Assembly: GCA_035288225.1 (NCBI GenBank)
Contig: DATEAT010000052.1
Span: 1,560-65,559, forward strand
Source of the DNA: Anaerolineales bacterium
Lineage (GTDB): Bacteria > Chloroflexota > Anaerolineae > Anaerolineales > RBG-16-64-43
Direction: 5' to 3'
DNA length: 64,000 bases
This document shows, one piece after another, positions 6,822-22,240 of this stretch. The position numbers and the translations under genes are program-made. The first letter of the stretch is position 1. Every line of letters begins with the position of its first letter. Below the pieces are notes generated by a model that did no database searches, was not told the origin of the DNA, and worked only from the letters and a program-made list of their open reading frames with translations.

Positions 6822-6825
6822 GCGC

Positions 6826-9800
6826 TCACGCGGGCTGATAGCGCCAGCAGAACAGGCGCGCCGGGCAGTACGCCGGACACCCGCCCTCGGGCGGCCTCGG
6901 GCGGAAGTCGCCCTCGCGAATGCCGGCAACGTAATTCCCGATGTAATCGCGGACCAGGTCCGCCGCGCCGTTCACGCCGGCGTAGTGCTTGCCCGCCTCC
7001 GAAACGTAGTTGAGTGCCTCCAACTTGAGCGCGCTGGGTCCGGCCTGGCGTATCTTCCAATAAACGCCCTCGGTCAGCCGGCCCAGCTTCAGCATGCCTT
7101 CGGCCGCAAGCCCGTAAACCGTGATCTGCAGCCGGCGCCCCTCTTCAAGATCGCGCATCTCGAGCCGGCTCGACCCGGTCTTGTAGTCGATCACTCGCAG
7201 CTGGCCCAGCGCGTCCACGTCCACACGGTCGATGACCCCGTGCAACAGAATTTCGCCGGCCTCGGTCTCCAGCCGCAGCGGGTCGCCCTCCATCCCGAAC
7301 TGCGCCTCGAGCCGCGCCGGGCGATATCCGGTCGAGTATGCATGCAACGCATGCAGCGTCTGGCGCAGGTCGTCGAGCAGGCCGGCCCGTTCGGCTTCCC
7401 ATAATGGGGAGCGGCGAAAACCAAGCCGCCGCGGCGCGTCGGCGAAAACTCGTTCGGCCACAGGCTCAAGTGACTCGAGGAGCAGCTCAAGGTTGGAAAC
7501 GTCCATAGCGCTTGCATAAACTTGCTCGAGGATCTCGTGCAGCATCGTCCCCAACTGCGCCGGATCGAATCCTATTTCGGGGTCGGCCAGTTCTTCGAGC
7601 GCGAGCGCCTTCTGGATAAAGAAGTGGAATTTGCAGCCGGCGTAGGTCTCGAGCCGGCCAGGGCTGAAGACGTGCCGCGGGCCGTAGGCCTTGCCCAGCA
7701 CCGGCGCGAGGTCCGCCGTTTGCCCATCGAACTCGCCCTGCGCCTCGCGCGCCAGGCGCGCCTGAAGTATGCGGCGGGCATGTTGTGCTTCGCGCCACTC
7801 GCTGCCGAGTTCCGCGTACTCTTCGGGCAGGTCGCCGCGCAGTAGCGCCTGCGCCAGGAGTTCGGAGCGCGAGGCGGCCTCGGAGAGCGGGAGGCGGCCC
7901 TCGCTGCGCACGCGATGCGGCACGACGCGCACCACCTCGCGCAGCGCGTGCCAGTAGGGCGAGGGCTCCCAGGCCTCGCCTTCCGGCGAGAGGTATGGCC
8001 GCGTGAGTAGCAAGAAGCGCTCGGCGCGCGTGACGGCCTCGTAGAAGACGGTTTGCTGATCGCTGCGCAGGCGCGGCTCGAGCCGCAGGCCGCGCTCGAT
8101 CAACTGCCCACGGTCGCTGTCGGTGAGGAACGGGTCCTCACTCAGCCGCCTGGGGAAGATGCCTTCCGCCACGCCGAGCAGGGCCACGGCCGGGAAGGGC
8201 ACGCCGCGCGCCTGGGTCAGGTCCGCCACGTAGATGCGCGAACCGCGCCAAGCCTCATCGCCCTCGGGCTGGTAGGTGGCAGCACCCACCGCCTCGCGCA
8301 ACTCGTCGATGAATTCGCGATAGGCCACACGCGGCGGGTTGGGCAGCGCCTTTTCGCTGAGCACGAGCGCGTCGAGCACCTGCCGCAGCGCCTCCAGCGC
8401 CGCCAGGTCCCGCTCCGAATTCTCGGGCACGGCGCGCACTTGGCGCTCGACGGCAAATCCTTCGGCGTCGTCGAGCCGCTCGAGCGCCCAGCGTGCATGC
8501 TCGGCGAGCGCCGCCTCCGGCGCGGGGCGAAGGCGCTCGGCCAGCCGTTCGAGCGCCGCGGCCAGGCGCCGCACTTGCCCGCCGGATGGGGCGCGCAGCG
8601 GCGTATCTTCGTCATCCGCGGCTGGAGGCGGCGCGGCATCCGCGAGCAATGCCAGCCCCTCCCGCCACTGGTCGAGACCGCGTATGACCTGTGCCGCGCG
8701 GGCGGCTTCCTCGAGCGGCCAGGCGTCGTCGCGCGCCAATCCGCAACTGCCCAGATCGAAGTACGGGCTGGAGACGACGTTCAGCAGCAACCGCCGCGGC
8801 CATTCGAGCAACGGTAGTTGCAGAAGGTTCAGGATCGAGGCGATGGCCGGGTTGTGTTCGAGCACGTCGCCCTGCACGAAGCGCACCGGCAGGTCGAACT
8901 CGCGCGCGGCCTCGCGCAGGTATGCCTGGTACGGGCGCAGGTCGGGCGCGATGATCGCGCATTCGAAGGGCTTAAGATCATCGCGCTGGAGGCGTGCCTT
9001 GATCCAGCGCAGCGCCTCGCGCGCCTCCAGCGCTTGGGTTTGCGCCTCGAGTAGCGTGACCTCCGCCCCGCCATCGACTTGCGGCGCCTCCGCCGAAAAG
9101 AGGTAACGCTCAAGATGCCCAAGCGCCTTCGGCCGTTGGCCGCCCGGCGTGAGCGTCGCGGGCGAGAGATGCAGGCGTTCGGTGAGGGTGCGGTGTGTGC
9201 GCTCGAACCGCCGGTAGGCGGCGCGACTCATATCCGGCTCGCCGCACAGCGTGATGACCAGCACGCCTACCTGCTGGCCGAGCGCGGTGAGCGCCTCGAG
9301 TTGCAGCGGGCTGAAGGAATCGAACCCGTCCACGATCAGGAGGTCAACAGAACGCAGGAGGCCGGCCTGCCGCTGGAGCGCGCGCACCGCCAGCCAGCCG
9401 GCTCCCTCGCGATCAACCCAGCTCAGGGCCTGCAACCGCTCCTGGTAGACGCGGTAGATGTCGGCCATCTCCTTCAGTCGCGGCGCGGCGTGCCCGAGCG
9501 CCGCCTGAAGCTGCTCGGGGGTCAGCATCGCCCGCTTGAATTCGGCGATGTGCTCGGCCATGGCGCGGATGAATCCCGGCGAGCGCCGGATGGGGGCGTA
9601 GTAGGGAAGGATGCCGTCGGCGTGCAGCGCATCGATCGCTGCGCGCACCATGCGCAGAACGACGGCCTCATCGGCGACCGGGATGAACTGGCCGGCGCGG
9701 GCGAGGATCTCATCGTACAGGCCGCTGAATCTGAGGACGGTAGCGCCGAGTGCGCCCCCGGACTGGGCCAGCCGGCGGCGCAAAGAGGTGGCGCTGGTTC

Positions 9801-9921
9801 GCGTGGGCACAACGACCCAGGCCGAGGCGAGCTTTTTCTTGGCCAGAAGCGATTGCACACGCTCAATGCAGGCGCGGGTTTTGCCCGAGGCGGCGGGGCC
9901 GAGCAGGTACTCGACGGACAT
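6826..9921 (-). CDS. addB: helicase-nuclease subunit B (AddB-type, C-terminal nuclease with Fe-S cysteines)
   Basis: N-terminal Walker A is GPAASGKT. The C-terminus has RVIDYKTG (PD-(D/E)XK) and cysteines AGCKF ... GGCPAYCPARLFCW (C..C-X3-C-X5-C), like the AddB iron-staple. It lies immediately upstream of addA. Confidence 0.8.
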   Translation of the reverse strand: MSVEYLLGPAASGKTRACIERVQSLLAKKKLASAWVVVPTRTSATSLRRRLAQSGGALGATVLRFSGLYDEILARAGQFIPVADEAVVLRMVRAAIDALHADGILPYYAPIRRSPGFIRAMAEHIAEFKRAMLTPEQLQAALGHAAPRLKEMADIYRVYQERLQALSWVDREGAGWLAVRALQRQAGLLRSVDLLIVDGFDSFSPLQLEALTALGQQVGVLVITLCGEPDMSRAAYRRFERTHRTLTERLHLSPATLTPGGQRPKALGHLERYLFSAEAPQVDGGAEVTLLEAQTQALEAREALRWIKARLQRDDLKPFECAIIAPDLRPYQAYLREAAREFDLPVRFVQGDVLEHNPAIASILNLLQLPLLEWPRRLLLNVVSSPYFDLGSCGLARDDAWPLEEAARAAQVIRGLDQWREGLALLADAAPPPAADDEDTPLRAPSGGQVRRLAAALERLAERLRPAPEAALAEHARWALERLDDAEGFAVERQVRAVPENSERDLAALEALRQVLDALVLSEKALPNPPRVAYREFIDELREAVGAATYQPEGDEAWRGSRIYVADLTQARGVPFPAVALLGVAEGIFPRRLSEDPFLTDSDRGQLIERGLRLEPRLRSDQQTVFYEAVTRAERFLLLTRPYLSPEGEAWEPSPYWHALREVVRVVPHRVRSEGRLPLSEAASRSELLAQALLRGDLPEEYAELGSEWREAQHARRILQARLAREAQGEFDGQTADLAPVLGKAYGPRHVFSPGRLETYAGCKFHFFIQKALALEELADPEIGFDPAQLGTMLHEILEQVYASAMDVSNLELLLESLEPVAERVFADAPRRLGFRRSPLWEAERAGLLDDLRQTLHALHAYSTGYRPARLEAQFGMEGDPLRLETEAGEILLHGVIDRVDVDALGQLRVIDYKTGSSRLEMRDLEEGRRLQITVYGLAAEGMLKLGRLTEGVYWKIRQAGPSALKLEALNYVSEAGKHYAGVNGAADLVRDYIGNYVAGIREGDFRPRPPEGGCPAYCPARLFCWRYQPA

Positions 9922-10046
9922 CGAGGGTTAGTGTAGCACAGGCACTTGCGCGCCTGTCGCGCCGCGGGGCCCGCGAGCCAACGCAGCCACCCGGGCAGCA
10001 TGTAACGCACGCGGGACTCGTGCGCATAGCATTCGCGCGCGGTCAA

Positions 10047-10068
10047 GCGTAAGGCGTGCTATGCCCTC
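10047..10068 (+). repeat. intergenic repeat module C ('MLCPL' module), copy 1
   Basis: The sequence gcgtaaggcgtgctatgccctc recurs with 0-3 changes at 23269, 44899, 61060 and 62818. It generates four spurious track ORFs that begin with MLCPL. Confidence 0.8.
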
Positions 10069-10103
10069 TTCCAGATTGGCGGTCGAGGACGACTTGCCGC
10101 GGG

Positions 10104-11009
10104 CTACACGCCCTGCAGCGTCCGGCGCCGTTCGCGCCTTGCCAGACGCTCCTCGCGCGCACCGTCGCCGGCCGGCCGCTGCGCCGCGAGCCACGACGCG
10201 CAGTTCTCGTCGTGGGCCATCATCACATCCGCTGCAAGGATCAACTTGCGCAAGTCCTCCTCCAGCGGATTAGTGATGGCACAGGTCATGCCCGCGCCGA
10301 TGGCCATGGTGAGAAAGGCGCCGTTCAGCATAACCCGGTCCGGCAGGCCGAACGAGATGTTGGATGCCCCACACACGGTGTTGACCCCAAGTTCCTCGCG
10401 CAGGCGGCGCACTAAGGCAAACAGCGAGACGCCGGCGGAAGCAACCGCGCCAATGGGCATGGCCAGCGGGTCGATGAGCACATCCTCGCGCGGGATGCCG
10501 AACGCTTCCGCGCGCGCGACGATCTTCTGTGCCACGGCGAAACGCACGTGTATGTCTTCCGAGATGCCGCCCTCGTCGTTGGCCACGCCGATCACCGCCG
10601 CACCGTGTTTCTTCACCAGCGGCAGCACCGCCTCCAGGCGCTCGCTCTCGCCGGTCACCGAATTGACCAGCGGTTTGCCGCGATAGGCCGCCAACCCAGC
10701 TTCCAACGCTTTGACAACCGATGAGTCGATGGACAGCGGTACGTCGACGGCCTCCTGGATGACGCGGATGGCCTCGGCCAGGATCGCCGGTTCATCGGCC
10801 AGCGGAATGCCCGCGTTGACATCCAGCACCTGCGCCCCGGCTTGCACCTGGGCAATCGCCTCCGCGCGCACGCGCGAGAAATCGCCAGCCGCCATTTCCG
10901 CCGCCAGCCGCGCGCGGTTGGTCGGGTTGATCCGTTCACCGATGATGACGAAGGGCCGCGCAGGGCCAATGCGCACTTCGCGCGCCGGCGAACGAAGAAT
11001 GGTCTCCAT
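10104..11009 (-). CDS. methyl-tetrahydrofolate:corrinoid methyltransferase (pterin-binding, MetH module-2 / AcsE / MtgA-like)
   Basis: The 301-aa protein has IGERINPT, LDVNAG, NSV and GASNISFGLP motifs of the pterin-binding (DHPS-like) barrel. Its ATG overlaps the metF stop (TGATG). Confidence 0.8.
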   Translation of the reverse strand: METILRSPAREVRIGPARPFVIIGERINPTNRARLAAEMAAGDFSRVRAEAIAQVQAGAQVLDVNAGIPLADEPAILAEAIRVIQEAVDVPLSIDSSVVKALEAGLAAYRGKPLVNSVTGESERLEAVLPLVKKHGAAVIGVANDEGGISEDIHVRFAVAQKIVARAEAFGIPREDVLIDPLAMPIGAVASAGVSLFALVRRLREELGVNTVCGASNISFGLPDRVMLNGAFLTMAIGAGMTCAITNPLEEDLRKLILAADVMMAHDENCASWLAAQRPAGDGAREERLARRERRRTLQGV

Positions 11010-11977
11010 CAGGGCACTTTTTCCTCAACTCGCCTCGCCGCCTCGGGCTCCGCCCGTCGCGGGAGCAGGCCGGCCTCTTCGATGATTTCCGCCACCAGCT
11101 CCTCCTGGCGATAGGCCATCACATGCACTCCATGGATGCCGGGCATCTCGCGCAGTTCGCGAATGATCTCGATGCACAGACGTTTGCCCTCCTCGCGCTG
11201 GCGGTCGGCCGGCACGCCGCGCAGTCGGAGCACCGCCTCATCCGGCACCACCACTCCCGGCACGTGGCTGCGCATCCACTCGGCAGCCTTGGCCGAGCGC
11301 AGCGGGCCCACGCCGGCCAGAATATGGACGCGGCGGTCGAGCCCCAAATCGCACACTTCGCGCATGAACTGGCGCATGCGCGCCAGGTCAAAAACATACT
11401 GGGTTTGAATGAAATCGGCCCCGGCTTCTACTTTCTTAGCCAGGTGCTGCGCGCGAAACTCCACCGGCGGCACAAACGGGTTGGCAGCCGCCCCCATGAA
11501 GATGCGCGGCGGCACCTCGAGCGACCGCCCGCTGAGGAAGCGCCCCTTGTCGCGCATCAGGCGCGCCATACGCAGCGCAGCGATCGAATCCAGATCGAAC
11601 ACCGGCTTAGCCTGCGGCTGATCACCAGCCTGGACACCATCGCCGGTGAGGAACAGCACGTTGCGCACGCCCATGGCGGCCGCTCCCAGCAGATCCCCCT
11701 GGATGGCGATGCGATTGCGGTCGCGGCAGCTTACCTGCAGCACGGCCTCGTAGCCGGCCCGTGTGAGCAATGCGCACACGCCAACGCTCGACATGTGGAC
11801 GTTGGCGCCCGAGGCATCGGTGGCATTGATCGCATCGCACACCGAGGCCAGCACCAACGCGCGGTCGTAAACCGCCTGGGCATCGGCGCTGTCGGGCGGG
11901 TTCAGCTCGGCCGTCACCGCGAATCGCCCCGAGTGCAACACGCGCTCGAGCCGGGAGCCGCTCTTCATTCGTTCCAT
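11009..11977 (-). CDS. metF: 5,10-methylenetetrahydrofolate reductase (MetF, MetVF type)
   Basis: The MTHFR-like sequence starts at MERMKSGSRLERVLHSGRFAVTAELNPP (start 11977 inside the longer track ORF 11009..12247). It overlaps the end of the MetV-like gene by 13 nt. Confidence 0.8.
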   Translation of the reverse strand: MERMKSGSRLERVLHSGRFAVTAELNPPDSADAQAVYDRALVLASVCDAINATDASGANVHMSSVGVCALLTRAGYEAVLQVSCRDRNRIAIQGDLLGAAAMGVRNVLFLTGDGVQAGDQPQAKPVFDLDSIAALRMARLMRDKGRFLSGRSLEVPPRIFMGAAANPFVPPVEFRAQHLAKKVEAGADFIQTQYVFDLARMRQFMREVCDLGLDRRVHILAGVGPLRSAKAAEWMRSHVPGVVVPDEAVLRLRGVPADRQREEGKRLCIEIIRELREMPGIHGVHVMAYRQEELVAEIIEEAGLLPRRAEPEAARRVEEKVP

Positions 11978-12420
11978 CCCTGGGGGACCGAATCCGGCAG
12001 GCCGAGCAGATCGTTCAACCAAGCCGAGCGATCCTGCTGCCGGCGATCGAGCGGCGGCAGGATGAGGCGGATTTCGCCGCCGTACTTGGGCATGCGCGCC
12101 GCGCGCTGCCAGGCCTCTGTCCAAATGCACGGCTGGTCGGGAAGGACTTCGCAGCGGCCGTCGGGGCGCACTCCGCCGCACGGCCCGTTGCGCATGTTCT
12201 TGGGGCAGGTCATCGGGCAGGTCATGCCGGTGTTGTGCAACACACACTCACCGCACATGCGGCAATCGAAGACGGCGCCTTTGCCCACCTGCTCGGCAAC
12301 GACCAGAAGCTTCTCGGTCGCCCCGCCGCGGCGCAGCCAGCGCCGCCATGGACGCAGCAAGCGCGTGGTTGCGTCGTAGGCCGTCTCGAGCAGCGCTGGA
12401 TAGTTTTGCAGGAACGACAT
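11965..12420 (-). CDS. methylene-THF reductase C-terminal-domain protein (MetV-like Cys-rich subunit)
   Basis: CRMCGECVLHNTGMTCPMTCPKNMRNGPCGGVRPDGRCEV...PCIW is the characteristic cysteine pattern of MetV / MTHFR_C proteins that partner MetF in anaerobes. Confidence 0.75.
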   Translation of the reverse strand: MSFLQNYPALLETAYDATTRLLRPWRRWLRRGGATEKLLVVAEQVGKGAVFDCRMCGECVLHNTGMTCPMTCPKNMRNGPCGGVRPDGRCEVLPDQPCIWTEAWQRAARMPKYGGEIRLILPPLDRRQQDRSAWLNDLLGLPDSVPQGWNE

Positions 12421-12458
12421 GCGCTCTACCTTTTCCCCTGCCGGTCGTGCAGCGAAGA

Positions 12459-12764
12459 CTATCCGGCCTCTAACCCGCGCTGAGCCACCAAGGCCTGCAG
12501 CCGCGCCTCGGGGTACGCGGCCTCGATCTCCGCCACGAGTTCCGCGGCCACCGATTCAGGTTCCCCTTCGCGGGTCTCGGGGTCGGACGTGCGCCACTCG
12601 GTGAGGTATTCGTCGCTGCCGCTCTTTCCGGCGCGCATCGCCGCCTCGTCGATCGCGTGCTGAAAGCGCTCGGCGAGCGGACGCGATATGCGCGTGCGCC
12701 CGGCGCGCACCCTCACCTGCGCCGGGATTTCGCGCCACGAAACGATTTGTATGACGACGCTCAT
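12459..12764 (-). CDS. 'virulence factor' domain protein (small accessory protein of corrinoid methyltransferase clusters)
   Basis: MSVVIQIVSWREIPAQVRVRAGRTRISRPLAERFQHAIDEAAMRAGKSGSDEYLTEWR matches the pattern of the Virulence_fact family. The start at 12764 overlaps the DUF1638 stop (ATGA-type coupling). Confidence 0.65.
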   Translation of the reverse strand: MSVVIQIVSWREIPAQVRVRAGRTRISRPLAERFQHAIDEAAMRAGKSGSDEYLTEWRTSDPETREGEPESVAAELVAEIEAAYPEARLQALVAQRGLEAG

Positions 12765-13351
12765 GCTTTCATCATCTCCACCAGCCGTGATTCGAGCGCA
12801 CCGTAGCCCACCTGCACCACTTCCAGCGGCAGCCCCAGGGCGCGCGCAGCCCATTCTGCCTTGGCCACCAGCTCCGGCTTGTCCTCCTGCGCCAGATACA
12901 CCACCTTGGTGTAATTGGCGAAGTAGTCCTCGCGCAGCTCCGGGTGGCGAGCGAGACCCAATCGTTCGACCACCAGGTGATCGAACGAGCGCGCCAGGTA
13001 GTCGGTGAGGAAGAACGTGCCCGGCTCGCGGTCCATCATCGTCTGGAACTGTCCATTGGCATACATCTCGTAACAGTGAGGCCCCGCCACACGTTCAACG
13101 CCTTCGGCGGCGAGCAGCGCATCCAGGCGGCCGCCCGTGCCGCAATCGCCGTAAACCACGATGACCCGCTCGAAGTCGGCACGCGCTTCGCGGATGCGCC
13201 GCGCCACGGCCTGCGGGATGCGGTCGGGTGTGTTGTGCAACAAGGACGGCACGGCCAGCACTTCCGCCCGCCAGCCATGTTTGGCGTTGAGGGCCAGCAC
13301 TTCGCGCGCCAATGCGCCACACGCAATCAGGGCAGTTCGCAACTCGACCAC
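12761..13351 (-). CDS. DUF1638-domain protein
   Basis: GTG start at 13351 (VVELRTALIACGALAREV...). LLHNTPDRIP...VIVVYGDCGTGG is the typical DUF1638 pattern. The upstream part of track ORF 12761..13651 overlaps the preceding gene and is rejected. Confidence 0.65.
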   Translation of the reverse strand: MVELRTALIACGALAREVLALNAKHGWRAEVLAVPSLLHNTPDRIPQAVARRIREARADFERVIVVYGDCGTGGRLDALLAAEGVERVAGPHCYEMYANGQFQTMMDREPGTFFLTDYLARSFDHLVVERLGLARHPELREDYFANYTKVVYLAQEDKPELVAKAEWAARALGLPLEVVQVGYGALESRLVEMMKA

Positions 13352-13356
13352 TCCCT

Positions 13357-14244
13357 TTAGAGCAGGCCTTTGGCTGCGAGCGCATTGCGCATGGCTCGCA
13401 AATGGTCTGGTGTGCTTCCGCAGCACGCGCCGATCACGCGCGCGCCGGCCTCGGCGGCCGCGATGGCGTAGCGCGCCATGTCGTCCGGGCCGGCGCCGTA
13501 TACCGGACGCCCGGCGAGGAGGTGCGGCACGCCGGCGTTGGCTTTGGCCACGAGCGTGGCGGCGGGCGCCATCGCCCGCATCTTGGCCACGACCTCGAGA
13601 ATCTCCTCCGGCCCATTGCCGCAGTTGCCCCCCACCGCCACGGCCCCCCATCCGCTCAGGGTCTGCGCCGCGCGCTCGGGCGTCACGCCCATCATCGTCC
13701 GCCCGCGCGTGTCGAACGTCATCGTGGTGATGATCGGGATATCCGCCGACGCGCGTCGCACTCCGTCGAAAGCCGCCCGCATCTCTTCCAGGCTCGACAT
13801 CGTCTCGAGCCAGATCACGTCGACCCCGCCCTCGACCAGCGCCGCCGCCTGCTCGGCGAACCCGGCCACGGCTGCCTCAGGCTCCAATTCGCCGAGAGGC
13901 GCCAGGATGCCGCCGCTGGGGCCAATGTCGCCTGCCACCAGGGCGGCGCCTCCCGCGGCTTCGCGCGCCAAGCGCGCGGCAGCGCGGTTCAGTTCGGCGG
14001 CACGCTCCTGCAAGTTGTGGAGCTGCAGGCGGAAGCGGTTCCCGCCGAATGTGTTGGTCAGGAGGATGCGCGCACCCGCTTGGACGTAAGCCGCGTGAAT
14101 CTCTCCCACGCGATGCGGCTCGTCGACGTTCCATAGTTCAGGGGAATTGCCGAACGCCAGTCCGTTGGCCATCAACATCGTGCCCATCGCACCATCGGCG
14201 AGAATCACCCCTGGCTGCGCTAGCAACTCACTCCAGGTTGTCAT
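13357..14244 (-). CDS. homocysteine S-methyltransferase domain protein (stand-alone MetH module-1-like)
   Basis: ILADGAMGT, LTNTFGGN, GGNCGNGP and IGACCGSTPDHL are present. The zinc-ligand pattern C...CC of the Hcy-binding barrel is intact. AAGGAGG lies 6 nt upstream of the ATG. Confidence 0.8.
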   Translation of the reverse strand: MTTWSELLAQPGVILADGAMGTMLMANGLAFGNSPELWNVDEPHRVGEIHAAYVQAGARILLTNTFGGNRFRLQLHNLQERAAELNRAAARLAREAAGGAALVAGDIGPSGGILAPLGELEPEAAVAGFAEQAAALVEGGVDVIWLETMSSLEEMRAAFDGVRRASADIPIITTMTFDTRGRTMMGVTPERAAQTLSGWGAVAVGGNCGNGPEEILEVVAKMRAMAPAATLVAKANAGVPHLLAGRPVYGAGPDDMARYAIAAAEAGARVIGACCGSTPDHLRAMRNALAAKGLL

Positions 14245-14384
14245 TCGGCCTCCTTGTTAGCGTCGTTGTTTGGCCCGATGTCAATCTCACCGATCGAGGT
14301 GGGTAGCGGAGGCCTATGGTCGGCCCGCCCAAGCACCTGGCCGCCGTCCCGCCTCGTCCGCGCACTCCTGCCGCTGCGGCCACG

Positions 14385-15068
14385 CTAGCCCCCGCGCTTG
14401 AGCGCGACCAGTTTCTTGGCCGTTTCGACCGCGATGGCCGCATCGCGACAGTAGGCGTCGGCCTCGATCTCCTCGGCAAAGGCGGCGTTGAGCGGCGCGC
14501 CCCCGACCAAGACGATCAGGTCGTCGCGCAAACCGGCTTCCTTGAGAGCCTTGATCACCACCCCCATGTAGGGCATGGTCGTGGTCAGCAGCGCGCTCAT
14601 GCCGAAGAGAGTGGGCTTGTGCTCCTTCACCGCGCCGATGAACTTCTCCGCGTCCACGTTGATGCCCAGGTTCACCACCTTGAACCCGGCCCCCTCCATC
14701 ATCATCGCCACCAGGTTCTTGCCGATGTCGTGAATGTCGCCCTTCACCGTCCCGATGACGAGCGTGCCGATCTGCGGCGCACCGGTCTCCACCAGCAACG
14801 GGCGCAGGATTTCCATGCCGGCCTTCATCGACTTGGCGGCCATGAGAACTTCGGGCACGAAGAGCACCCCGTCGCGGAAATCCGCACCTACCACATCCAT
14901 GCCGGCCACGAGCGACCCGGTTAGGACCTCGTAGGGAGTCAGGCCGCGACGTAGCAGTTCCCGCACCGCGGCCGCAACTTCAGCCGCCAGTCCATCATAC
15001 AGGTCGTCCTTGATCTGCAGGACGATCTCCTCAGTCGGCAGCTTGGTCAGATCCAGTTCCTCGCTCAT
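14385..15068 (-). CDS. cobalamin-binding corrinoid protein (B12 cap + Rossmann domains, MtgC/MtbC-like)
   Basis: GTVKGDIHDIGKNLV carries the DxHxxG base-off/His-on motif. The 227-aa length is typical. The start overlaps the activase stop (ATGA). Confidence 0.85.
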   Translation of the reverse strand: MSEELDLTKLPTEEIVLQIKDDLYDGLAAEVAAAVRELLRRGLTPYEVLTGSLVAGMDVVGADFRDGVLFVPEVLMAAKSMKAGMEILRPLLVETGAPQIGTLVIGTVKGDIHDIGKNLVAMMMEGAGFKVVNLGINVDAEKFIGAVKEHKPTLFGMSALLTTTMPYMGVVIKALKEAGLRDDLIVLVGGAPLNAAFAEEIEADAYCRDAAIAVETAKKLVALKRGG

Positions 15069-17167
15069 TCCGCAATCTCCAGGTGGGATGGGTTAGTGTG
15101 GCTTTGCCGCGGCCGCGCCCGTGCGGCGGTTCGCGGGGCAGGAAGCTCGCCCTGCAAATGAGGGAAGGCGTCGCTTGCGTGCGGCATGGCGAGTGCCGCG
15201 ACGAACTGATCTTGAAAGGTGGGCTCGGTGGCCGTCTGCACGTGCTCCACCCAGCTCGCCAGCCGCTCCGCCTCCACTCGCTGCTCGCGGTCCAGCAGGG
15301 CAATGCGCGCTCCGTCGCCCGCCGAATTGCCCACGGCCTGAACGCGCTCCAACTCGCAGTCTGGGATCATGCCCAGGATCATCGCATGGCGCGGGCTGAT
15401 GTAACTGCCAAAGGCCCCGGCCAGCGCGATACGATCGACGTGTGCGACACCCTGATGTTCCATGAGCAGCCGCACGCCGGCATACAGCGCCGCCTTGGCC
15501 AATTGAATCGCGCGGACGTCGCTTTGGGTGACCACGATCGGCGCGCCGGTAGCGGTTTGCGCGGCGTCCGCGAGCACGTAGCGCCCGGTGCGGCCTTCGA
15601 ATTGCACGCGCGGCGAACGCTCGGCGGCCTGTTCGTCGAAGCGGCCGTCGGAGGTGATAATGCCGGCCAGGAACATTTCCGCCACGGCCTCGATGATGCC
15701 GCTGCCGCAGATGCCGGTAGCGCGCGCCTGGCCAGGCACTTCGTCCGCGGCCTGCGGCTCCACCCAGGCCTCATGGCCGATGACCTTGAAGCGCGGCTCG
15801 AGCGTGGCGCGGTCGATGCGCACGCGCTCGATGGCGCCCGGCGCAGCGCGCTGGCCATGGGTGATTTGCGCACCCTCGAATGCCGGCCCGGTCGGGCTTG
15901 AGGCGCACATCATTCGCGTGCGGTTGCCGAGCGAGATCTCGGCGTTGGTCCCCACGTCGATGAGCAGCATCGCTTCATCTTGCTTGTGCGGCGCCTCGGC
16001 CAAAAGGGCCGCCACGTGATCGGCTCCCACATGCCCGGCGATACACGGCAGCACATGCACGCGCGCGCCGCGATGGAACGCCAGCCCCAGGTCGCGCGCC
16101 TTCATGTCGAGCGGTCCGGAGGTAGCCAGCGCGAACGGCGCACCGCCCAGCTCAACCGGGTCGAGGCCGAGCAGCAGGTGATGCATGATGCTGTTGCCCA
16201 CCAGCACGCTGTCGACGATCTCGCCCGCGGTGAAGCCGGCCCGCACGGCGGCCTTCTCGGCCAATTCGTTGATCGCGCGGATGACCGCACGGTGCATACG
16301 CGCCACGCCTTGCGGCTCGCTCATGCCGTACGACACCCGGCTCATCAGGTCTTCGCCGAAGCGCACCTGAGGATTCATCATCGATTCGCTGGCAAGCACG
16401 GCGCCGGTGCGCAAATCGCACAGGTGGGCTGCAATGGTCGTCGATCCTACATCCACCGCCAGGCCGACCAGCCGCTCCACATAACCGGGCTCGATGCGCA
16501 GCACCTCGCGCTCGTCCCACAGGGTGAGGGTCAGCGTGCTTCCGCCGCGGCGCAGCGCCGGTTGCAGGCTGGGCAGCACGGCCGTGTCGAGCACCGGCGA
16601 CGCGATCTGCCATTGTTCACGCAGCGCCTGCTCCACCCTTTGCCAATCCCCGCGATGGTCGCCCAGGCTGGCCGGGGTCACTTCTATATAGATGAGCCGC
16701 ACTGCGGGCTGAATGGTTATCGTGCGCTCGGTGGCCTCTTTGGCGATGACCTGTTTGCGCGCCTGGCTTTCCTCCGGCACGCTGACCAGCACTTCGCCCT
16801 GCACGCGGGCGGCACAGGCCAGCCGTCGGCCGTGTATATCGAATTTGGCCGCGCAGGCGATCTCTTGCGCCTCGGGCGGCGAGAGGTGACGTGCGGCGGA
16901 GGTGAGGCCGTGCTTCTCGTAGCGCCCTTCTTCCACAACGACCTGGCACTTGCCGCAGGTCTGCTTGCCGCCGCAAATCGATTCGAGATCCACCCCCAGT
17001 GAGCGGCAGGCGGTGAGCAGGTCGGTCCCCTCGGCGATGAGCCCGCGCCGCCCAGAAGGCACGAGCACGAGCTGGTGTTCGCGGGTTGAGGTTGGCTTGT
17101 CGGTCACAGTGTCATCCGTCCCATATCGATGGGTATGCGTTGAGGGCCGGGCCTGCCCCTCCCCCAC
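15065..17167 (-). CDS. corrinoid reductive activase (RACo-type: N-terminal 2Fe-2S ferredoxin + ASKHA ATPase domain)
   Basis: The ferredoxin cysteines are CGGKQTCGKCQV...C, followed by a large ASKHA/DUF4445-like body (DVGTNAE, GSGIIEAV). The first start is GTG at 17167. A better-placed GTG at 17107 follows GGACGGA. Confidence 0.8.
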   Translation of the reverse strand: MGEGQARPSTHTHRYGTDDTVTDKPTSTREHQLVLVPSGRRGLIAEGTDLLTACRSLGVDLESICGGKQTCGKCQVVVEEGRYEKHGLTSAARHLSPPEAQEIACAAKFDIHGRRLACAARVQGEVLVSVPEESQARKQVIAKEATERTITIQPAVRLIYIEVTPASLGDHRGDWQRVEQALREQWQIASPVLDTAVLPSLQPALRRGGSTLTLTLWDEREVLRIEPGYVERLVGLAVDVGSTTIAAHLCDLRTGAVLASESMMNPQVRFGEDLMSRVSYGMSEPQGVARMHRAVIRAINELAEKAAVRAGFTAGEIVDSVLVGNSIMHHLLLGLDPVELGGAPFALATSGPLDMKARDLGLAFHRGARVHVLPCIAGHVGADHVAALLAEAPHKQDEAMLLIDVGTNAEISLGNRTRMMCASSPTGPAFEGAQITHGQRAAPGAIERVRIDRATLEPRFKVIGHEAWVEPQAADEVPGQARATGICGSGIIEAVAEMFLAGIITSDGRFDEQAAERSPRVQFEGRTGRYVLADAAQTATGAPIVVTQSDVRAIQLAKAALYAGVRLLMEHQGVAHVDRIALAGAFGSYISPRHAMILGMIPDCELERVQAVGNSAGDGARIALLDREQRVEAERLASWVEHVQTATEPTFQDQFVAALAMPHASDAFPHLQGELPAPRTAARARPRQSHTNPSHLEIAE

Positions 17168-17187
17168 TCACGGCCTCGCGGCATCTG

Positions 17188-18708
17188 TCAGCTGCTCTGG
17201 CCGGCCGCTTCACGTCGCCGCCGTTCAGTGCGCTCACGCCGGGCGGTCGGCGCGGCGCGCGTCCAGCCTTCGGGCGGGCGCGAGTCCCCGGCCACCAGAC
17301 CCGCGAATTTGGCGCGCACGCGCGCCTCGACCTCCGGAGCAAATACCGCCGGGTTGTCGCGGGTCAGGATCTCTTGCACTTTGCGCATCGCGCGCGCCTG
17401 TGAATCCAAGGCGCCGCGCTCGATCCACTGGGCGCGTGCGTCGCGATCCGAAATCTCGGGCAGGAAGGCGGCCGTCTTCATGCGCTCCAATGTGTGCACG
17501 TTGTCCATGAACATGCCCGCCGGCCCCACCTCGCGAATCAGATCGAGCGCCAGGTTGTCCTCGCTGAATTCAAGCCCGCGCTTGGCCCGCTTGGCCATCA
17601 TGAAGATTTCGTCGTCGATGGCCGCCTTGGCATAATCGAATGCCATCAACGCGTCGAGCAACCCGCCGGTATTGAACATATCCACGCCGGCCGCCAGGCC
17701 AAGCGCCAGCGACATGCCGGTCTCGTAGCCAGACTGGGCGTCGTTGAGTTTGGAGTTGGTCAGCCCAATGTAGCCGCCGTTGGGCACATTGTAGAAGCGC
17801 GCCATCTGCGCGTGCCCCACGAAGAGCACGCCGGTCTCGATCGCGCCCGGGGCGTAGGCCCCGCTGCGCATATCGGCCACGGTAGGCAATGTGGCGTAGA
17901 TCGTGGCTTTGCCGGGTCGCACCATTTGCTCGAGAACCGCCGCGGCCAGGAATTCCGCATTGCCCTGGGCCAAAGACCCCAGGAGAGTCAGCGGGGAGGT
18001 GAGCCCGGCGTTAGGAACAATGGTCGGGTAGCACGGCAATCCTTGCTCGGTGTAATAGATGAGCATCTGCGTCGAATCGAAATCCATTGTCAGCGGCGAA
18101 ACCACCGGGCAGTAGTGATGTGTCACGAAAGGATGTGCACGGTAGGCAGCTTCGCTTCCGGCGATGGTGAACGCCAGTTGCAGGATCTTCTCGGTGTCCT
18201 CAGGCGGTCCGCTGCCGCGCACCGGCTTGGCGCAGTTCTTGAGCGCGGCATAGAAGCGGGTAAGGCTGAACATGCCCGCCGGGGCGTCTTCGGCTAGAGT
18301 CGAAATGGAAAAGACGTCGTACCCCGGGAGTTCGTTCACCAGGTGGGCGATGCGCGCCAGGTCTTCCGAGCGCGCGCGTCGTTCCTGCCCGGTCAGCGGG
18401 TCGATAATGTTCGGCGCCGAACTGCCGGTGACCATCACTGGGCTGTCGTCCGGGATCGTCCGGTCGAAGCGCGGATCGCGGCCGCCAAAGGTGAAGGTGG
18501 GCGGGATCGAGGCGCGGAACTCTTCAACCACGGCACGTGGGAAGTGCATGATCTCCGTCCCGGGCTGCGGCCGGCAACCATGCGCAGCAAGAATCTCACG
18601 CGCTTGGGCATTGCGGATGAGCAGCCCCACCTCGTCGAGAATCTCCAGCGAGGCCTCGTGAACGCGTAGCACCTGCTCGCGGCTCAGCAATTCGTAGTGT
18701 TGGGTCAT
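17188..18708 (-). CDS. MttB-superfamily (trimethylamine methyltransferase family) corrinoid-dependent methyltransferase, non-pyrrolysine type
   Basis: The 506-aa protein shows family-wide similarity (LSREQVLRVHEASLEILDEVG..., ...DAQSGYE...). There is no in-frame TAG, so it belongs to the non-Pyl branch that contains quaternary-amine methyltransferases. Confidence 0.85.
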   Translation of the reverse strand: MTQHYELLSREQVLRVHEASLEILDEVGLLIRNAQAREILAAHGCRPQPGTEIMHFPRAVVEEFRASIPPTFTFGGRDPRFDRTIPDDSPVMVTGSSAPNIIDPLTGQERRARSEDLARIAHLVNELPGYDVFSISTLAEDAPAGMFSLTRFYAALKNCAKPVRGSGPPEDTEKILQLAFTIAGSEAAYRAHPFVTHHYCPVVSPLTMDFDSTQMLIYYTEQGLPCYPTIVPNAGLTSPLTLLGSLAQGNAEFLAAAVLEQMVRPGKATIYATLPTVADMRSGAYAPGAIETGVLFVGHAQMARFYNVPNGGYIGLTNSKLNDAQSGYETGMSLALGLAAGVDMFNTGGLLDALMAFDYAKAAIDDEIFMMAKRAKRGLEFSEDNLALDLIREVGPAGMFMDNVHTLERMKTAAFLPEISDRDARAQWIERGALDSQARAMRKVQEILTRDNPAVFAPEVEARVRAKFAGLVAGDSRPPEGWTRAAPTARRERTERRRREAAGQSS

Positions 18709-18759
18709 CGCCTCGTCCCTCTCTCACCGCGCGGAGTGCTCGCCTCCCGCGGCGCAGGT

Positions 18760-19548
18760 CTATAGAGCCAGCGCCGCCGTCTCGGTGACGAATTGAAAAC
18801 GGTCCCCCCGGTAGTGGTCCTCGCCGTGGTCCACCGGCGCGCCCAGAACATCATATGAAAGCCGGCGCTCAAGCATCAGCGGTGCGCTCAACGGCACGAG
18901 CAATTGCTCCGACTCGTACGCGGTGGCCAGCACCGCCTCCAGGCTGAGGCGCGCGCGATGCACATCGACCCCGTAGTGCTCATGCAGCACCTCGTACAAC
19001 GAGTGCTGCTCGAGATCGTATCGCGCCAGGCGCGCAAAGCGCATGATCGGAAGCGTATAGTGCTCGAGCAGCACCGGCTGACCGTTGAGGAATCGCAGCC
19101 GGCGGATGTCGTAGATGGGTGCAAATGCCGGCAGGCGCAGCGCCGCCGCTAGAGCTGCGCCGCACGGCCGCTCCTCAAACGAGACCACCTTCGCTCCCGG
19201 CGTGAAGCCTTGCTCGCGCATGCGTTTGGTGAACGAGACGAGTTGCCCGGCCTGGCGCTCGATCTTGCGGTCGGCGATGTACGTACCGGCACCCTGGCGG
19301 CGCGCGAGCAGCCCCTGCGCCTCGAGCATCTCCAAAGCACGGCGCAACGTCATGCGGTTCACCCCAAGCATCTGGCTCAGATCGCGCTCGGGCGGCAAGC
19401 GATCGCCAGGAGCGAGGCGACCCGAATCGACCCAGGTTAGAAGTCCTTCTGCGATTTGAATGTAGAGAGGCACGCCGGCCACCAGGCGGTTGACCGGTTT
19501 GAGCTGGAGAGGATTGAGCGAGGTGTATTCGGCCTTTGGAGAAGCCAT
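18760..19548 (-). CDS. GntR-family transcriptional regulator, HutC subfamily (wHTH + UTRA)
   Basis: LPPERDLSQMLGVNRMTLRRALEMLEAQGLLARRQGAGTYI is the GntR winged HTH. The C-terminal ~150 aa is UTRA-like. It is the first gene of the operon. Confidence 0.85.
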   Translation of the reverse strand: MASPKAEYTSLNPLQLKPVNRLVAGVPLYIQIAEGLLTWVDSGRLAPGDRLPPERDLSQMLGVNRMTLRRALEMLEAQGLLARRQGAGTYIADRKIERQAGQLVSFTKRMREQGFTPGAKVVSFEERPCGAALAAALRLPAFAPIYDIRRLRFLNGQPVLLEHYTLPIMRFARLARYDLEQHSLYEVLHEHYGVDVHRARLSLEAVLATAYESEQLLVPLSAPLMLERRLSYDVLGAPVDHGEDHYRGDRFQFVTETAALAL

Positions 19549-19576: not shown

Positions 19577-19588
19577 TGGTATATACCA
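19577..19588. promoter_or_regulatory. perfect 12-bp palindrome TGGTATATACCA, candidate HutC/GntR operator
   Basis: It matches the HutC-type GT-N-TA-N-AC core. It is embedded in ATTGGTCTGGTGGTATATACCAAT, just downstream of the predicted -10 and 29 nt upstream of the gntR ATG. Confidence 0.55.
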
Positions 19589-19599
19589 ATCTCGGGGAC

Positions 19600-19628
19600 A
19601 GGATAGCATGGGTGGACTTCTGTGTCAA
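19600..19628 (-). promoter_or_regulatory. sigma70-like promoter of the gntR-mttB operon
   Basis: On the minus strand it reads TTGACA - 17 nt - TATCCT. Confidence 0.5.
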
Positions 19629-20131: not shown

Positions 20132-20209
20132 TGGCGGGAGCGACGGGATTCGAACCCGCGGTCTCGGCCTTGACAGGGCCGCGTGTTAGGCCAGCTACAC
20201 CACGCCCCC
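20132..20209 (-). tRNA. tRNA-Asp (anticodon GTC), CCA encoded
   Basis: Reverse complement is GGGGGCGTGGTGTAGCTGGCCTAACACGCGGCCCTGTCAAGGCCGAGACCGCGGGTTCGAATCCCGTCGCTCCCGCCA. It has a 7-bp acceptor stem, anticodon loop CTGTCAA and T-loop GGTTCGAATCC. Confidence 0.9.
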
Positions 20210-20346: not shown

Positions 20347-21312
20347 ATGTCATCTTCTAACCCAGCCCCCGCCTACCTGCGCCTCGGGCGCAAGACGGCT
20401 CTCGCCGAGCGGGCCAAGCGCGCCCGCGCGCACCTTTCGGCGTGCGACCTATGCCCGCGCAATTGCGGCGCCGATCGCACTCGCGAAGCCGGCACATGCC
20501 GCACCGGACGCGCCGCGCGCATGCTGGCCTACATCCCCAACTTCCACGAAGAGGCGACCATCGTCGGATCGCGCGGCTCGGGCGCGATTCTCTTCGCCGG
20601 CGGCGAATTGCGCAAACCCGGCGCGCCGCTTAACGAACAGCGCCCGATGGCCTTCAGCCATGAAAGCTCAGAGCGCGAGGTAACACCCGCCGAACTGGCA
20701 GCGTGCATGCTTGAGCTGCAAACCGCTGGCTGCCACAACATCAATCTGGTCAACCCCAGCCATGTCGTGGCACAGATCCTCGAGGCCTTGGCAATCGCCG
20801 CCCGCCAAGGTCTGACTGTGCCGCTGGTATACAACTCAAACGGATACGACGCAGCGCAGGCCCTGGCCTTGCTCGAGGGGGTTGTCGACATCTACGCCCC
20901 GGAGATGCGCTTCGGTTATACACGCGAGGCGCGCCGCTTCCTCGACGTGCGCGACTACCCACTTATCAACCGCGCCGCACTGCGTGAGATGCACCGCCAG
21001 GTGGGCGATCTGGTGGTGAGCGATGACGGCTCCGCCATACGCGGGCTGCTTGTGCGCCACGTGGTGCTGCCTAACCGCCTGGCTGGCACATCCTACGTTG
21101 TCCGCTTTCTGGCGCGCCAGATATCACCCCATACGTATCTCCATCTGGTCGACGACTTCCGGCCCACGCGCAGCGCCAAGGGACTTGGCGATTTGTATCG
21201 CAAGATCACGCCGCGCGAATTAGAGAGCGCTAAGACCTTGGCCAGCGAAGCGGGCTTGCATCGGTTCGGACGCATCGCGCACATCGAGCGCGGCCCAACG
21301 ATTGCCGTGTAA
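20347..21312 (+). CDS. PflX-like radical-SAM paralog lacking the CX3CX2C cluster motif (possible non-catalytic partner or decaying duplicate)
   Basis: It aligns along its full length with the downstream gene. It keeps the N-terminal CDLCPRNC...GTC motif. Where the partner has GCNLRCQFCQNH, this copy has GGELRKPGAPLN. Confidence 0.7.
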   Translation: MSSSNPAPAYLRLGRKTALAERAKRARAHLSACDLCPRNCGADRTREAGTCRTGRAARMLAYIPNFHEEATIVGSRGSGAILFAGGELRKPGAPLNEQRPMAFSHESSEREVTPAELAACMLELQTAGCHNINLVNPSHVVAQILEALAIAARQGLTVPLVYNSNGYDAAQALALLEGVVDIYAPEMRFGYTREARRFLDVRDYPLINRAALREMHRQVGDLVVSDDGSAIRGLLVRHVVLPNRLAGTSYVVRFLARQISPHTYLHLVDDFRPTRSAKGLGDLYRKITPRELESAKTLASEAGLHRFGRIAHIERGPTIAV

Positions 21313-21337
21313 GCGGCGCACCGGGCGGCAGCCGCCC

Positions 21338-22240
21338 ATGACCAAAACCCCCGCGTATCTCACTCTGCACCGCTCTGGAGAACTGGGCGCGCGCGCCCGG
21401 GAGGCCGCCGGCCGTCTCACCTCCTGCGATCTGTGCCCGCGCCGCTGCCGGGTGGATCGCACAACGCACGCCGGCACCTGCCGCATCGGGCGCTGGGCGC
21501 GCGTCGCCTCCTTTGCGCCTCACTTCGGCGAGGAAGCCCCTCTCACCGGGCATCATGGCTCGGGCACGATTTTCTTTTCCGGCTGCAACCTGCGCTGCCA
21601 GTTCTGCCAGAACCACACCATCAGCCAGAGCCCCGATGCGCCGGAAGTCGATGCCGGCGAACTGGCCGCGATGATGCTTCACATGCAGGAGCTCGGTTGC
21701 CACAACATCAACCTGGTCTCGCCGAGCCACGTGGTGGCGCAGATACTCGAAGCGGTGCACCTGGCCGCGCACCAGGGGCTGCGCCTCCCGCTGGTCTACA
21801 ACAGTGGCGGATACGATTGCCTCGAGGCGCTGCACCTGCTCGAGGGCGTGATTGATATCTACATGCCGGATATGAAGTATTCCGACGCGCGGGTCGGGCT
21901 GGCTTACTCGCACGCCGCCGATTATCCGGCCGTCAATCGGGGCGCCGTGAAAGAGATGCATCGCCAGGTTGGGGATTTGGTGCTGGATCCCGAGGGCCTG
22001 GCCGTGCGTGGGCTGCTGGTTCGGCATCTTGTCCTACCCAACAATCTGGCGGGGACTCGTCAGATCGCACGCTTTCTCGCGCACTCGATCTCCCGCGCGA
22101 CGTATCTGAACCTGATGGACCAGTACCGCCCGGACTATCGCGCGGGCCAGCACGCCGACATCTGCCGCCCGCTGACCCAGGAAGAGTATGCGCGGGCACG
22201 GTCGGCCGCCGAAGCCGCCGGCCTCACCCGCTTCGCGTGA
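21338..22240 (+). CDS. radical SAM protein (PflX-like, COG1313-type)
   Basis: SGCNLRCQFCQN is the canonical CX3CX2C motif. The N-terminal CDLCPRRC...GTC is an auxiliary Cys motif. The likely start is MTKTPAYLTL at 21338 within track ORF 21302..22240. Confidence 0.8.
   Translation: MTKTPAYLTLHRSGELGARAREAAGRLTSCDLCPRRCRVDRTTHAGTCRIGRWARVASFAPHFGEEAPLTGHHGSGTIFFSGCNLRCQFCQNHTISQSPDAPEVDAGELAAMMLHMQELGCHNINLVSPSHVVAQILEAVHLAAHQGLRLPLVYNSGGYDCLEALHLLEGVIDIYMPDMKYSDARVGLAYSHAADYPAVNRGAVKEMHRQVGDLVLDPEGLAVRGLLVRHLVLPNNLAGTRQIARFLAHSISRATYLNLMDQYRPDYRAGQHADICRPLTQEEYARARSAAEAAGLTRFA

Follow-up and report, generated by a model that had tools for sequence, protein, structure and literature searches.

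How does a stand-alone homocysteine (Hcy) S-methyltransferase module obtain its methyl group when it is encoded next to a stand-alone corrinoid protein? The question is raised by a 64,000-nucleotide stretch of DNA from an Anaerolineales bacterium (contig DATEAT010000052.1, positions 1,560 to 65,559; hereafter the window), in which a ten-gene operon encodes, among other proteins, a 295-aa Hcy module, a 227-aa cobalamin (B12)-binding protein and a methyltransferase of the MttB superfamily. We propose that the 295-aa protein is the MtgE-type Hcy module of a modular corrinoid methyltransferase system, and that the 227-aa protein is its shared, MtgC-type B12 carrier, an assignment that we regard as likely. 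It is based on domain content, motifs, gene order, conservation and orthology to genetically proven systems; the methyl-transfer steps, the methyl donor and the direct supply of methionine by an MttB-loaded carrier are what we infer from them. The locus is a new and unusually compact example of the published MtgBCDE/split-MetH system rather than a new system, and this kind of system is previously undescribed in Chloroflexota. What distinguishes it is that the Hcy gene shares an operon with the mttB gene, and that the MttB protein belongs to a separate subfamily.

The homocysteine module

The Hcy open reading frame (ORF) starts with ATG, preceded by the Shine-Dalgarno sequence AAGGAGG 4 nt upstream, and its product consists of a single full-length PF02574 domain (residues 15–289, E 6e-68). 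The sole cysteines of the protein are C208, located in the motif G205-G-N-C208-G, and C274 and C275 in the motif G272-A-C274-C275-G-S. The best match among solved structures is the Hcy module of Thermotoga MetH (1q7m, E 1.6e-54), where the two motifs align with GINCS and GGCCG, and the sequence similarity to MetH Hcy modules of solved structure (E 1e-54) is enough to settle the fold. The cysteine triad also aligns with the zinc ligands C217, C299 and C300 of human betaine–homocysteine methyltransferase (BHMT); the sequence used in the alignment is one that we take to be the human protein, with agreement in length and in eight landmark residues. A preliminary description of the locus had proposed that the protein contains only the module-1 barrel of MetH with its zinc pattern (GGNCG...GACCGS) intact, and the full-length domain and the three aligned cysteines bear this out.

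The ligands for homocysteine are retained as D17 and E147 (D26 and E159 in BHMT). In the same alignment, the residues that bind betaine in human BHMT, W44, Y77 and Y160, are replaced by S33, G67 and T148, and both the BHMT-specific loop and the C-terminal oligomerisation arm are absent. As judged from these positions, the donor site resembles that of MetH rather than that of BHMT.

The replaced betaine residues and the missing loop and arm argue against an alternative assignment, in which the 295-aa protein is a cofactor-independent betaine (or dimethylsulfoniopropionate, DMSP):homocysteine methyltransferase, that is, a true BHMT/Bmt that takes an onium methyl group at its zinc site, and in which the adjacency of the corrinoid gene reflects shared regulation only. 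Support for this alternative comes from the family models, where the best model for the protein is the NCBIfam entry NF005718 (“betaine--homocysteine S-methyltransferase”). The score of 337.8 bits is just short of the cut-off of 338, and the match spans profile positions 6–297 of 337 with the C-terminal tail missing. When the genetic and syntenic evidence presented below is added, we consider a true BHMT improbable.

The remaining family models bear on a second alternative, namely that the protein is an S-methylmethionine- or S-adenosylmethionine (AdoMet)-dependent homocysteine methyltransferase of the MmuM/YagD/YitJ type, unrelated to the corrinoid protein. Such enzymes are alike in PF02574 fold and zinc triad, and the bifunctional YitJ-type model NF006396 has one half that resembles the Hcy protein of the operon (279 bits) and another that resembles the MetF protein (208 bits). 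Against this, the Hcy protein scores poorly with the MmuM model NF007020 (106 bits; cut-off 215) and with the MmuM structure 5dml (60 bits), as compared with the Bmt/MtgE model (338 bits) and the T. maritima MetH module (189 bits), and the synteny of the Hcy gene with the corrinoid and DUF1638 genes is conserved. We therefore find an MmuM-type function extremely unlikely. The score with the full-length metH model TIGR02082 is 151 bits (cut-off 1011).

Operon organization and the corrinoid carrier

The operon is located on the minus strand, and its ten genes are ordered GntR regulator, MttB-family methyltransferase, RACo/RamA-like activase, corrinoid protein, Hcy module, DUF1638 protein, PF13769 protein, MetV, MetF and pterin module (Table 1). 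Stop and start codons overlap at four of the junctions; between the activase and corrinoid genes the overlap reads ATGA. The preliminary description had placed the B12-binding, pterin-binding and reactivation functions on separate polypeptides of one operon, with a stand-alone corrinoid protein adjoining the Hcy gene and with a RACo ATPase in place of an AdoMet-binding domain. All of this agrees with the domain assignments, in which the corrinoid, pterin and RACo functions are found on individual minus-strand ORFs. The description of the locus as an MttB operon with these modules was also right, but it overlooked DUF1638, PF13769 and MetV.

The corrinoid protein is made up of a B12-binding cap (PF02607) and a B12-binding domain (PF02310), and contains the motifs D111-x-H113-x-x-G116 (the His-on motif DxHxxG), S158-x-L and G189-G. 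Corrinoid proteins of methyltransferase systems (202 bits for 1y80 and 149 bits for MttC) match it better than the B12 domains of MetH do (approximately 113 bits), and this proximity to methylotrophic carriers agrees with Mausz et al., in whose view the system is more than a MetH broken into fragments. The activase is composed of a 2Fe-2S ferredoxin domain followed by RACo linker, middle and ASKHA domains, and scores 401 bits with the NCBIfam AcsV-type model, which is under the cut-off. The operon thus encodes both a RamA-like (DUF4445/RACo) activase and a DUF1638 protein. We scanned all window ORFs of about 170 aa or more, and the two small genes of the operon. The AdoMet reactivation domain PF02965 is present in none of the window ORFs scanned, and no match to metH or metE was obtained among them; the large ORFs of 1275 and 759 aa encode DnaE and a penicillin-binding protein, respectively.

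The PF13769 protein is always found just before MetV-MetF, here as well as in Sinorhizobium meliloti, and possibly assists the MetVF reductase; its family name is uninformative.

Table 1. Features of the operon and its control region in the window.
Feature	Position	Strand	Evidence and remarks
Promoter-like site, TTGACA-17 nt-TATCCT	19600..19628	-	Upstream of regulator gene; consensus scan, 10/12 matches plus TG extension; predicted function
Perfect palindrome TGGTATATACCA	19577..19588	.	Between promoter-like site and GntR start; candidate GntR/HutC-type operator
GntR-family regulator with UTRA effector domain, 262 aa	18760..19548	-	PF00392 and PF07702; heads conserved cluster in relatives
MttB-superfamily (non-pyrrolysine) substrate:corrinoid methyltransferase, 506 aa, distinct subfamily	17188..18708	-	PF06253, E 3.8e-90
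RACo/RamA-like ATP-dependent reductive activase of corrinoid proteins	15065..17167	-	PF00111, PF17650, PF17651, PF14574; start uncertain, 17167 or ~17107
Corrinoid (B12) carrier, stand-alone, MtgC-like, 227 aa	14385..15068	-	PF02607 and PF02310
Homocysteine S-methyltransferase module, stand-alone, MtgE/Bmt-like, 295 aa	13357..14244	-	PF02574; zinc triad C208/C274/C275
DUF1638 protein, 193 aa, B12-reactivation accessory	12761..13342	-	PF07796, E 8e-30; TTG start after AGGGAG, read from sequence
Small PF13769 (“virulence factor”) protein, 101 aa	12459..12764	-	PF13769, E 3.5e-25; ATG overlaps DUF1638 stop
MetV-like Cys-rich protein (MTHFR C-terminal domain family), 151 aa	11965..12420	-	PF12225, E 3e-26
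Methylenetetrahydrofolate reductase, MetF2-like, 319 aa	11009..11968	-	PF02219, E 1e-35; start overlaps MetV stop
Pterin-binding methyltetrahydrofolate:corrinoid methyltransferase, MtgD/MtgA-like, 301 aa	10104..11009	-	PF00809; NCBIfam NF005719, 340.8 bits (cut-off 259)

Comparison with known methyltransferase systems

Two Roseobacters provide the genetic reference for the assignment. In Phaeobacter inhibens, fitness genetics showed that methionine synthesis relies on three separate proteins (PF02574, B12-binding and pterin-binding), with additional need for RamA-like DUF4445 and DUF1638 proteins in B12 reactivation, so that methionine prototrophy depends on each of the Hcy, B12, pterin, RamA-like and DUF1638 genes (Price et al., bioRxiv 10.1101/192971). 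The corresponding split-MetH genes are PGA1_c13370, c13350 and c16040, with c15200 encoding the RamA-like and c13340 the DUF1638 protein. In Ruegeria pomeroyi, glycine betaine is demethylated by the MttB-family protein MtgB together with MtgC (corrinoid) and MtgD (pterin), and mutation of mtgC or of mtgD abolishes methionine synthesis as well as the use of betaine; the Hcy module was named MtgE, the S. meliloti “Bmt/BHMT” was reinterpreted as MtgE, and an induced MetF paralogue was noted (Mausz et al., PMC12478193). The R. pomeroyi genes are SPO2108/2134, SPO2160, SPO1863 and SPO1884.

The Roseobacter system and the window have in common an MttB-family protein, corrinoid, pterin and Hcy modules, a RamA-like activase, a DUF1638 protein and a MetF paralogue, and the proposed logic is alike, with one corrinoid carrier serving both demethylation and methionine synthesis. 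They differ in that the Roseobacter genes are scattered and mtgE is regulated separately, whereas the window genes form one operon that includes an MttB of another subfamily. The genetics also bear on the true-BHMT alternative, since the need for the B12, pterin, RamA-like and DUF1638 genes in P. inhibens implies that Bmt alone is insufficient in vivo on ordinary media. Further, an S. meliloti bmt mutant still catabolises betaine if given methionine, according to the summary in PMC12478193.

For sequence comparison, S. meliloti proteins were used as a proxy for those of Roseobacters. The region around S. meliloti bmt (SMc04325), of roughly 18 kb, contains counterparts to all nine non-regulatory window genes, with identities of 46–65% except for MttB: corrinoid protein 65%, MetF 63%, pterin module 56%, RACo (ASKHA protein) 50%, MetV 50%, DUF1638 48%, PF13769 48% and Hcy module (Bmt) 47%. 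The MetF counterpart is an MTHFR whose gene adjoins mtgD, and the counterpart of the pterin module bears the name “methyltetrahydrofolate cobalamin methyltransferase”. The window MttB is only 26–27% identical to the MttB of the S. meliloti cluster, which in turn is 45% identical to Desulfitobacterium hafniense MtgB. The order PF13769-MetV-MetF-pterin is identical in the two organisms; in S. meliloti, unrelated genes are interspersed and both strands are used, and Bmt has about 40 more C-terminal residues than the window Hcy protein.

The D. hafniense MtgB/MtgC/MtgA system likewise comprises an MttB-family MT1, a corrinoid protein, a pterin-binding MT2 and a RamA-type activase, but this glycine betaine:tetrahydrofolate (THF) system is without the Hcy module that the window has. 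Canonical MetH (E. coli, Thermotoga, Thermus) contains Hcy, pterin and B12 modules homologous to those of the window, and the chemistry is predicted to be alike, that is, transfer from methyl-Co(III) to a zinc-activated homocysteine thiolate. In MetH, however, the modules are joined in one polypeptide together with the AdoMet reactivation domain PF02965 (lacking in Thermotoga), whereas in the window they are divided over three ORFs. BHMT of the human/SAR11 type shares the PF02574 barrel, the zinc Cys3 site and the homocysteine ligands with the window protein, and the net reaction may match as well (betaine + homocysteine -> dimethylglycine + methionine). While BHMT binds betaine itself, betaine-type donors in the window would be handled by the separate MttB enzyme through B12.

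The comparison with BHMT made in the preliminary description was apt, considering the near-threshold NF005718 score and the reinterpretation of S. meliloti Bmt as MtgE (PMC12478193). Its picture of a disaggregated MetH with a RACo activase and an MttB enzyme, acting as a B12-based analogue of BHMT, is essentially right; it is also essentially the published MtgBCDE model, and hence not new.

Conservation of the locus

The window derives from an uncultured lineage of Anaerolineae (Chloroflexota). The Hcy protein is 95–98% identical to proteins of Anaerolineae metagenome-assembled genomes (MAGs) and of “Chloroflexi bacterium RBG_16_64_43”, and the window DNA is present in soil, sediment and groundwater metagenomes. 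Synteny was surveyed in 80 genome loci with genes for Hcy-protein relatives. In 37 of the 72 informative loci the gene immediately upstream of the Hcy gene encodes the corrinoid protein, in 36 of 76 informative loci the one immediately downstream encodes DUF1638, and the full set of seven core genes that were counted (MttB, RACo, corrinoid, Hcy, DUF1638, MetF and pterin) is present in 20 loci. The corrinoid adjacency and the recurrence of the seven genes show that the arrangement of the Hcy and corrinoid genes is not due to chance. The order of the ten genes recurs in about 20 Anaerolineae loci and is kept within Anaerolineae down to about 57% Hcy-protein identity, and the core from RACo to pterin module is found also in an Acidobacteriota MAG.

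In a neighbor-joining tree of the Hcy family, corrinoid-linked and solitary genes are placed in largely separate clades, with the window protein in the linked clade. Throughout the clade that holds the window, the Hcy gene is positioned between the corrinoid and DUF1638 genes, which argues against a true BHMT.

A bare MttB-corrinoid-Hcy triad is seen in four Rokubacteria/Methylomirabilota MAGs (L033, L048, L057 and L059; positions ~7700–10900 in each), with RACo, DUF1638, pterin and MetF genes all absent within 10 kb.

The MttB subfamily and the methyl donor

The best solved relative of the window MttB is the D. hafniense glycine betaine methyltransferase MtgB (2qne/9yce; 228 bits, 33% identity), whose betaine contacts have been defined by mutagenesis and by the ligand-bound structure 9YCE (PMC13080624). 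In two independent alignments, the MtgB contacts Y97/R312/H348/F356 correspond to S/G/N/L in the window protein, which is thus not of the MtgB type but a member of the MttB family nonetheless. Assignment of the donor from the MtgB active-site residues was rejected, as all four differ. By comparison, Y97, R312 and H348 are retained in S. meliloti MttB and in the MttB proteins encoded at L012, L032 and L042. The window MttB groups with those of L005, L033, L037 and L085–L105 in a separate subfamily, with identities of 57–98% within the group and roughly 26–33% to the MtgB type, and the subfamily occurs in Anaerolineae and in Rokubacteria/Methylomirabilota.

An MttB-centred survey of 38 metagenome loci showed that the subfamily also occurs as GntR-MttB-corrinoid-pterin clusters without an Hcy gene (L090 and L091), or as solitary genes. 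Strict coupling of the subfamily to an Hcy module was rejected on account of these loci. A gene for a dimethylglycine dehydrogenase (DMGDH)-like protein is located in or beside the cluster, or beside an MttB of the window's subfamily, in 10 loci, and an EamA-family transporter gene is inserted between the mttB and RACo genes in 8 loci; neither gene is found in the window. The DMGDH-like protein in L037 (3892–6318) is about 808 aa long and contains DAO, FAO_M and GCV_T domains, as in dimethylglycine/sarcosine dehydrogenases; the other loci are L005, L007, L014, L016, L085, L086, L088, L093 and L103. The gene context in relatives hints at glycine betaine as the MttB donor, and the divergent subfamily is at the same time a candidate for a new substrate specificity. 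A more far-reaching suggestion is that the subfamily uses a donor new to the superfamily, and with the corrinoid and Hcy proteins constitutes a folate-independent, B12-dependent “X:homocysteine methyltransferase” of which the Rokubacteria triad would be the minimal form; this we regard as doubtful.

These observations also bear on the purpose of the operon as emphasized in the preliminary description, namely a dedicated, folate-independent route from MttB via the corrinoid protein to the Hcy module, by which an environmental methylated amine would be converted straight to methionine. Co-occurrence of mttB and the Hcy gene in one operon is consistent with such a route, as mtgE is located elsewhere in most marine Proteobacteria (PMC12478193), and so are the bare triads, whose MttB falls within the subfamily found in the window. 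The choice of loading enzyme, moreover, makes no chemical difference to the methyl-Co(III) carrier that results. On the other hand, the THF branch depends on the pterin module and MetVF, both of which are encoded in the window operon as well, and the MttB subfamily occurs without an Hcy gene or alone. The recurrent DMGDH-like gene beside this subfamily argues for carbon and energy catabolism, and P. inhibens mtgE is down-regulated in the presence of betaine (10.64898/2025.12.19.695462). Based on these points, we find it unlikely that a dedicated route is the main purpose of the operon.

Proposed mechanism and evaluation of the assignment

In the mechanism that we propose for the MtgE-type assignment, the Co(I) carrier would be methylated by the MttB-family enzyme from an environmental quaternary amine, for which glycine betaine is the best guess although the binding site is atypical; alternatively, the pterin module could load the carrier with 5-methyl-THF. 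The resulting methyl-Co(III) carrier would be unloaded by the pterin module to THF, after which MetVF would oxidise methyl-THF for one-carbon catabolism, or else the zinc-dependent Hcy module would move the methyl group to homocysteine, forming methionine. Carrier that has been oxidized to Co(II) would be rescued by the RACo/RamA-like ATP-dependent activase and DUF1638 rather than by an AdoMet domain, and the operon would be controlled by the GntR/UTRA regulator via the conserved palindromic site. It is likely that demethylation and methionine synthesis draw on the same carrier. Because the operon carries MetVF and the pterin module, the main methyl flux is probably to THF, and direct flux from MttB via the corrinoid protein to homocysteine is plausible.

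Several observations weigh against this reading of the locus. First, purified P. inhibens Bmt, the MtgE orthologue, forms methionine from betaine or DMSP in vitro without cobalamin or THF (Narvaez-Barragan et al., PMC12366255), as a true BHMT would. Second, about half of the related Hcy genes are without a corrinoid gene nearby. In one of these loci, from a Gaiellaceae MAG (L055, 4078–10879), the genes of an OpuA-type glycine betaine ABC transporter (ATPase, permease and OpuAC binding protein) immediately precede a 63%-identical Hcy gene, a DMGDH-like gene is close by, and corrinoid genes are absent within 10 kb; the arrangement is similar in L046 and L056, and the L055 context may represent a genuine direct BHMT. 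Third, the window MttB is without the arginine R312, which is reported to be conserved across all characterised MttB-family quaternary-amine enzymes. Finally, the RNA data described below are assembled contigs of relatives and may include DNA.

Control region, expression and neighboring genes

The palindrome TGGTATATACCA has its sole exact copy in the window at this site, and the chance expectation is 0.15 copies at up to 2 mismatches. With at most two changes it recurs 40–100 bp upstream of the GntR gene in approximately 20 related loci, and we consider it a candidate operator with a predicted role in control of the operon.

The corrinoid and Hcy genes are separated by a gap of 140 nt, in which a consensus scan detected neither promoter nor terminator. 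An Rfam scan of the whole window returned tRNA-Asp alone, and thus no riboswitch or other RNA element in the operon. In more distant relatives the gap is down to about 20–40 nt, and for this reason it does not represent a conserved element; the possibility that it is an RNA element was rejected on these grounds.

Related sequence was found in three metatranscriptomes only, as assembled contigs at roughly 90–95% identity. Contigs from a sediment metatranscriptome, derived from a relative of about 93% identity, span 10453–18966 at even depth, one contig joins the DUF1638, Hcy and corrinoid genes, and the depth drops to about 0 above 19383. The contigs lend weak support to co-transcription of the operon genes.

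Upstream of the operon, the tRNA-Asp gene is located at 20132–20209, and just past it is a tandem pair of plus-strand genes (20347–21312 and 21302–22240), each encoding about 315 aa and similar to one another, the second with a weak radical-SAM match and the first without a Pfam match. Directly downstream of the operon is an AddA/AddB-type helicase-nuclease pair on the minus strand (3510–9921), with UvrD helicase and PD-(D/E)XK domains in one protein and the AddB N-terminal domain and PD-(D/E)XK in the other. Positions 1–1790 of the window are characterized by lower G+C (0.59) and strong AT skew (0.17), and are without a convincing ORF or Rfam match.

Implications

With every component in one operon, the locus is the most compact form of the system seen so far, and is as such a convenient single-fragment construct for reconstitution. 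A construct of this type could show whether a methylated amine feeds methionine directly through B12. There is also a lesson for annotation: proteins of about 300 aa with a PF02574 domain that are annotated as “betaine--homocysteine S-methyltransferase” or “methionine synthase I”, and that are encoded beside corrinoid genes, should be read as MtgE-type modules. Finally, the link between betaine-type demethylation and methionine is widened from marine Proteobacteria to Chloroflexota of soil, sediment and groundwater and, by synteny, to Acidobacteriota and Rokubacteria.

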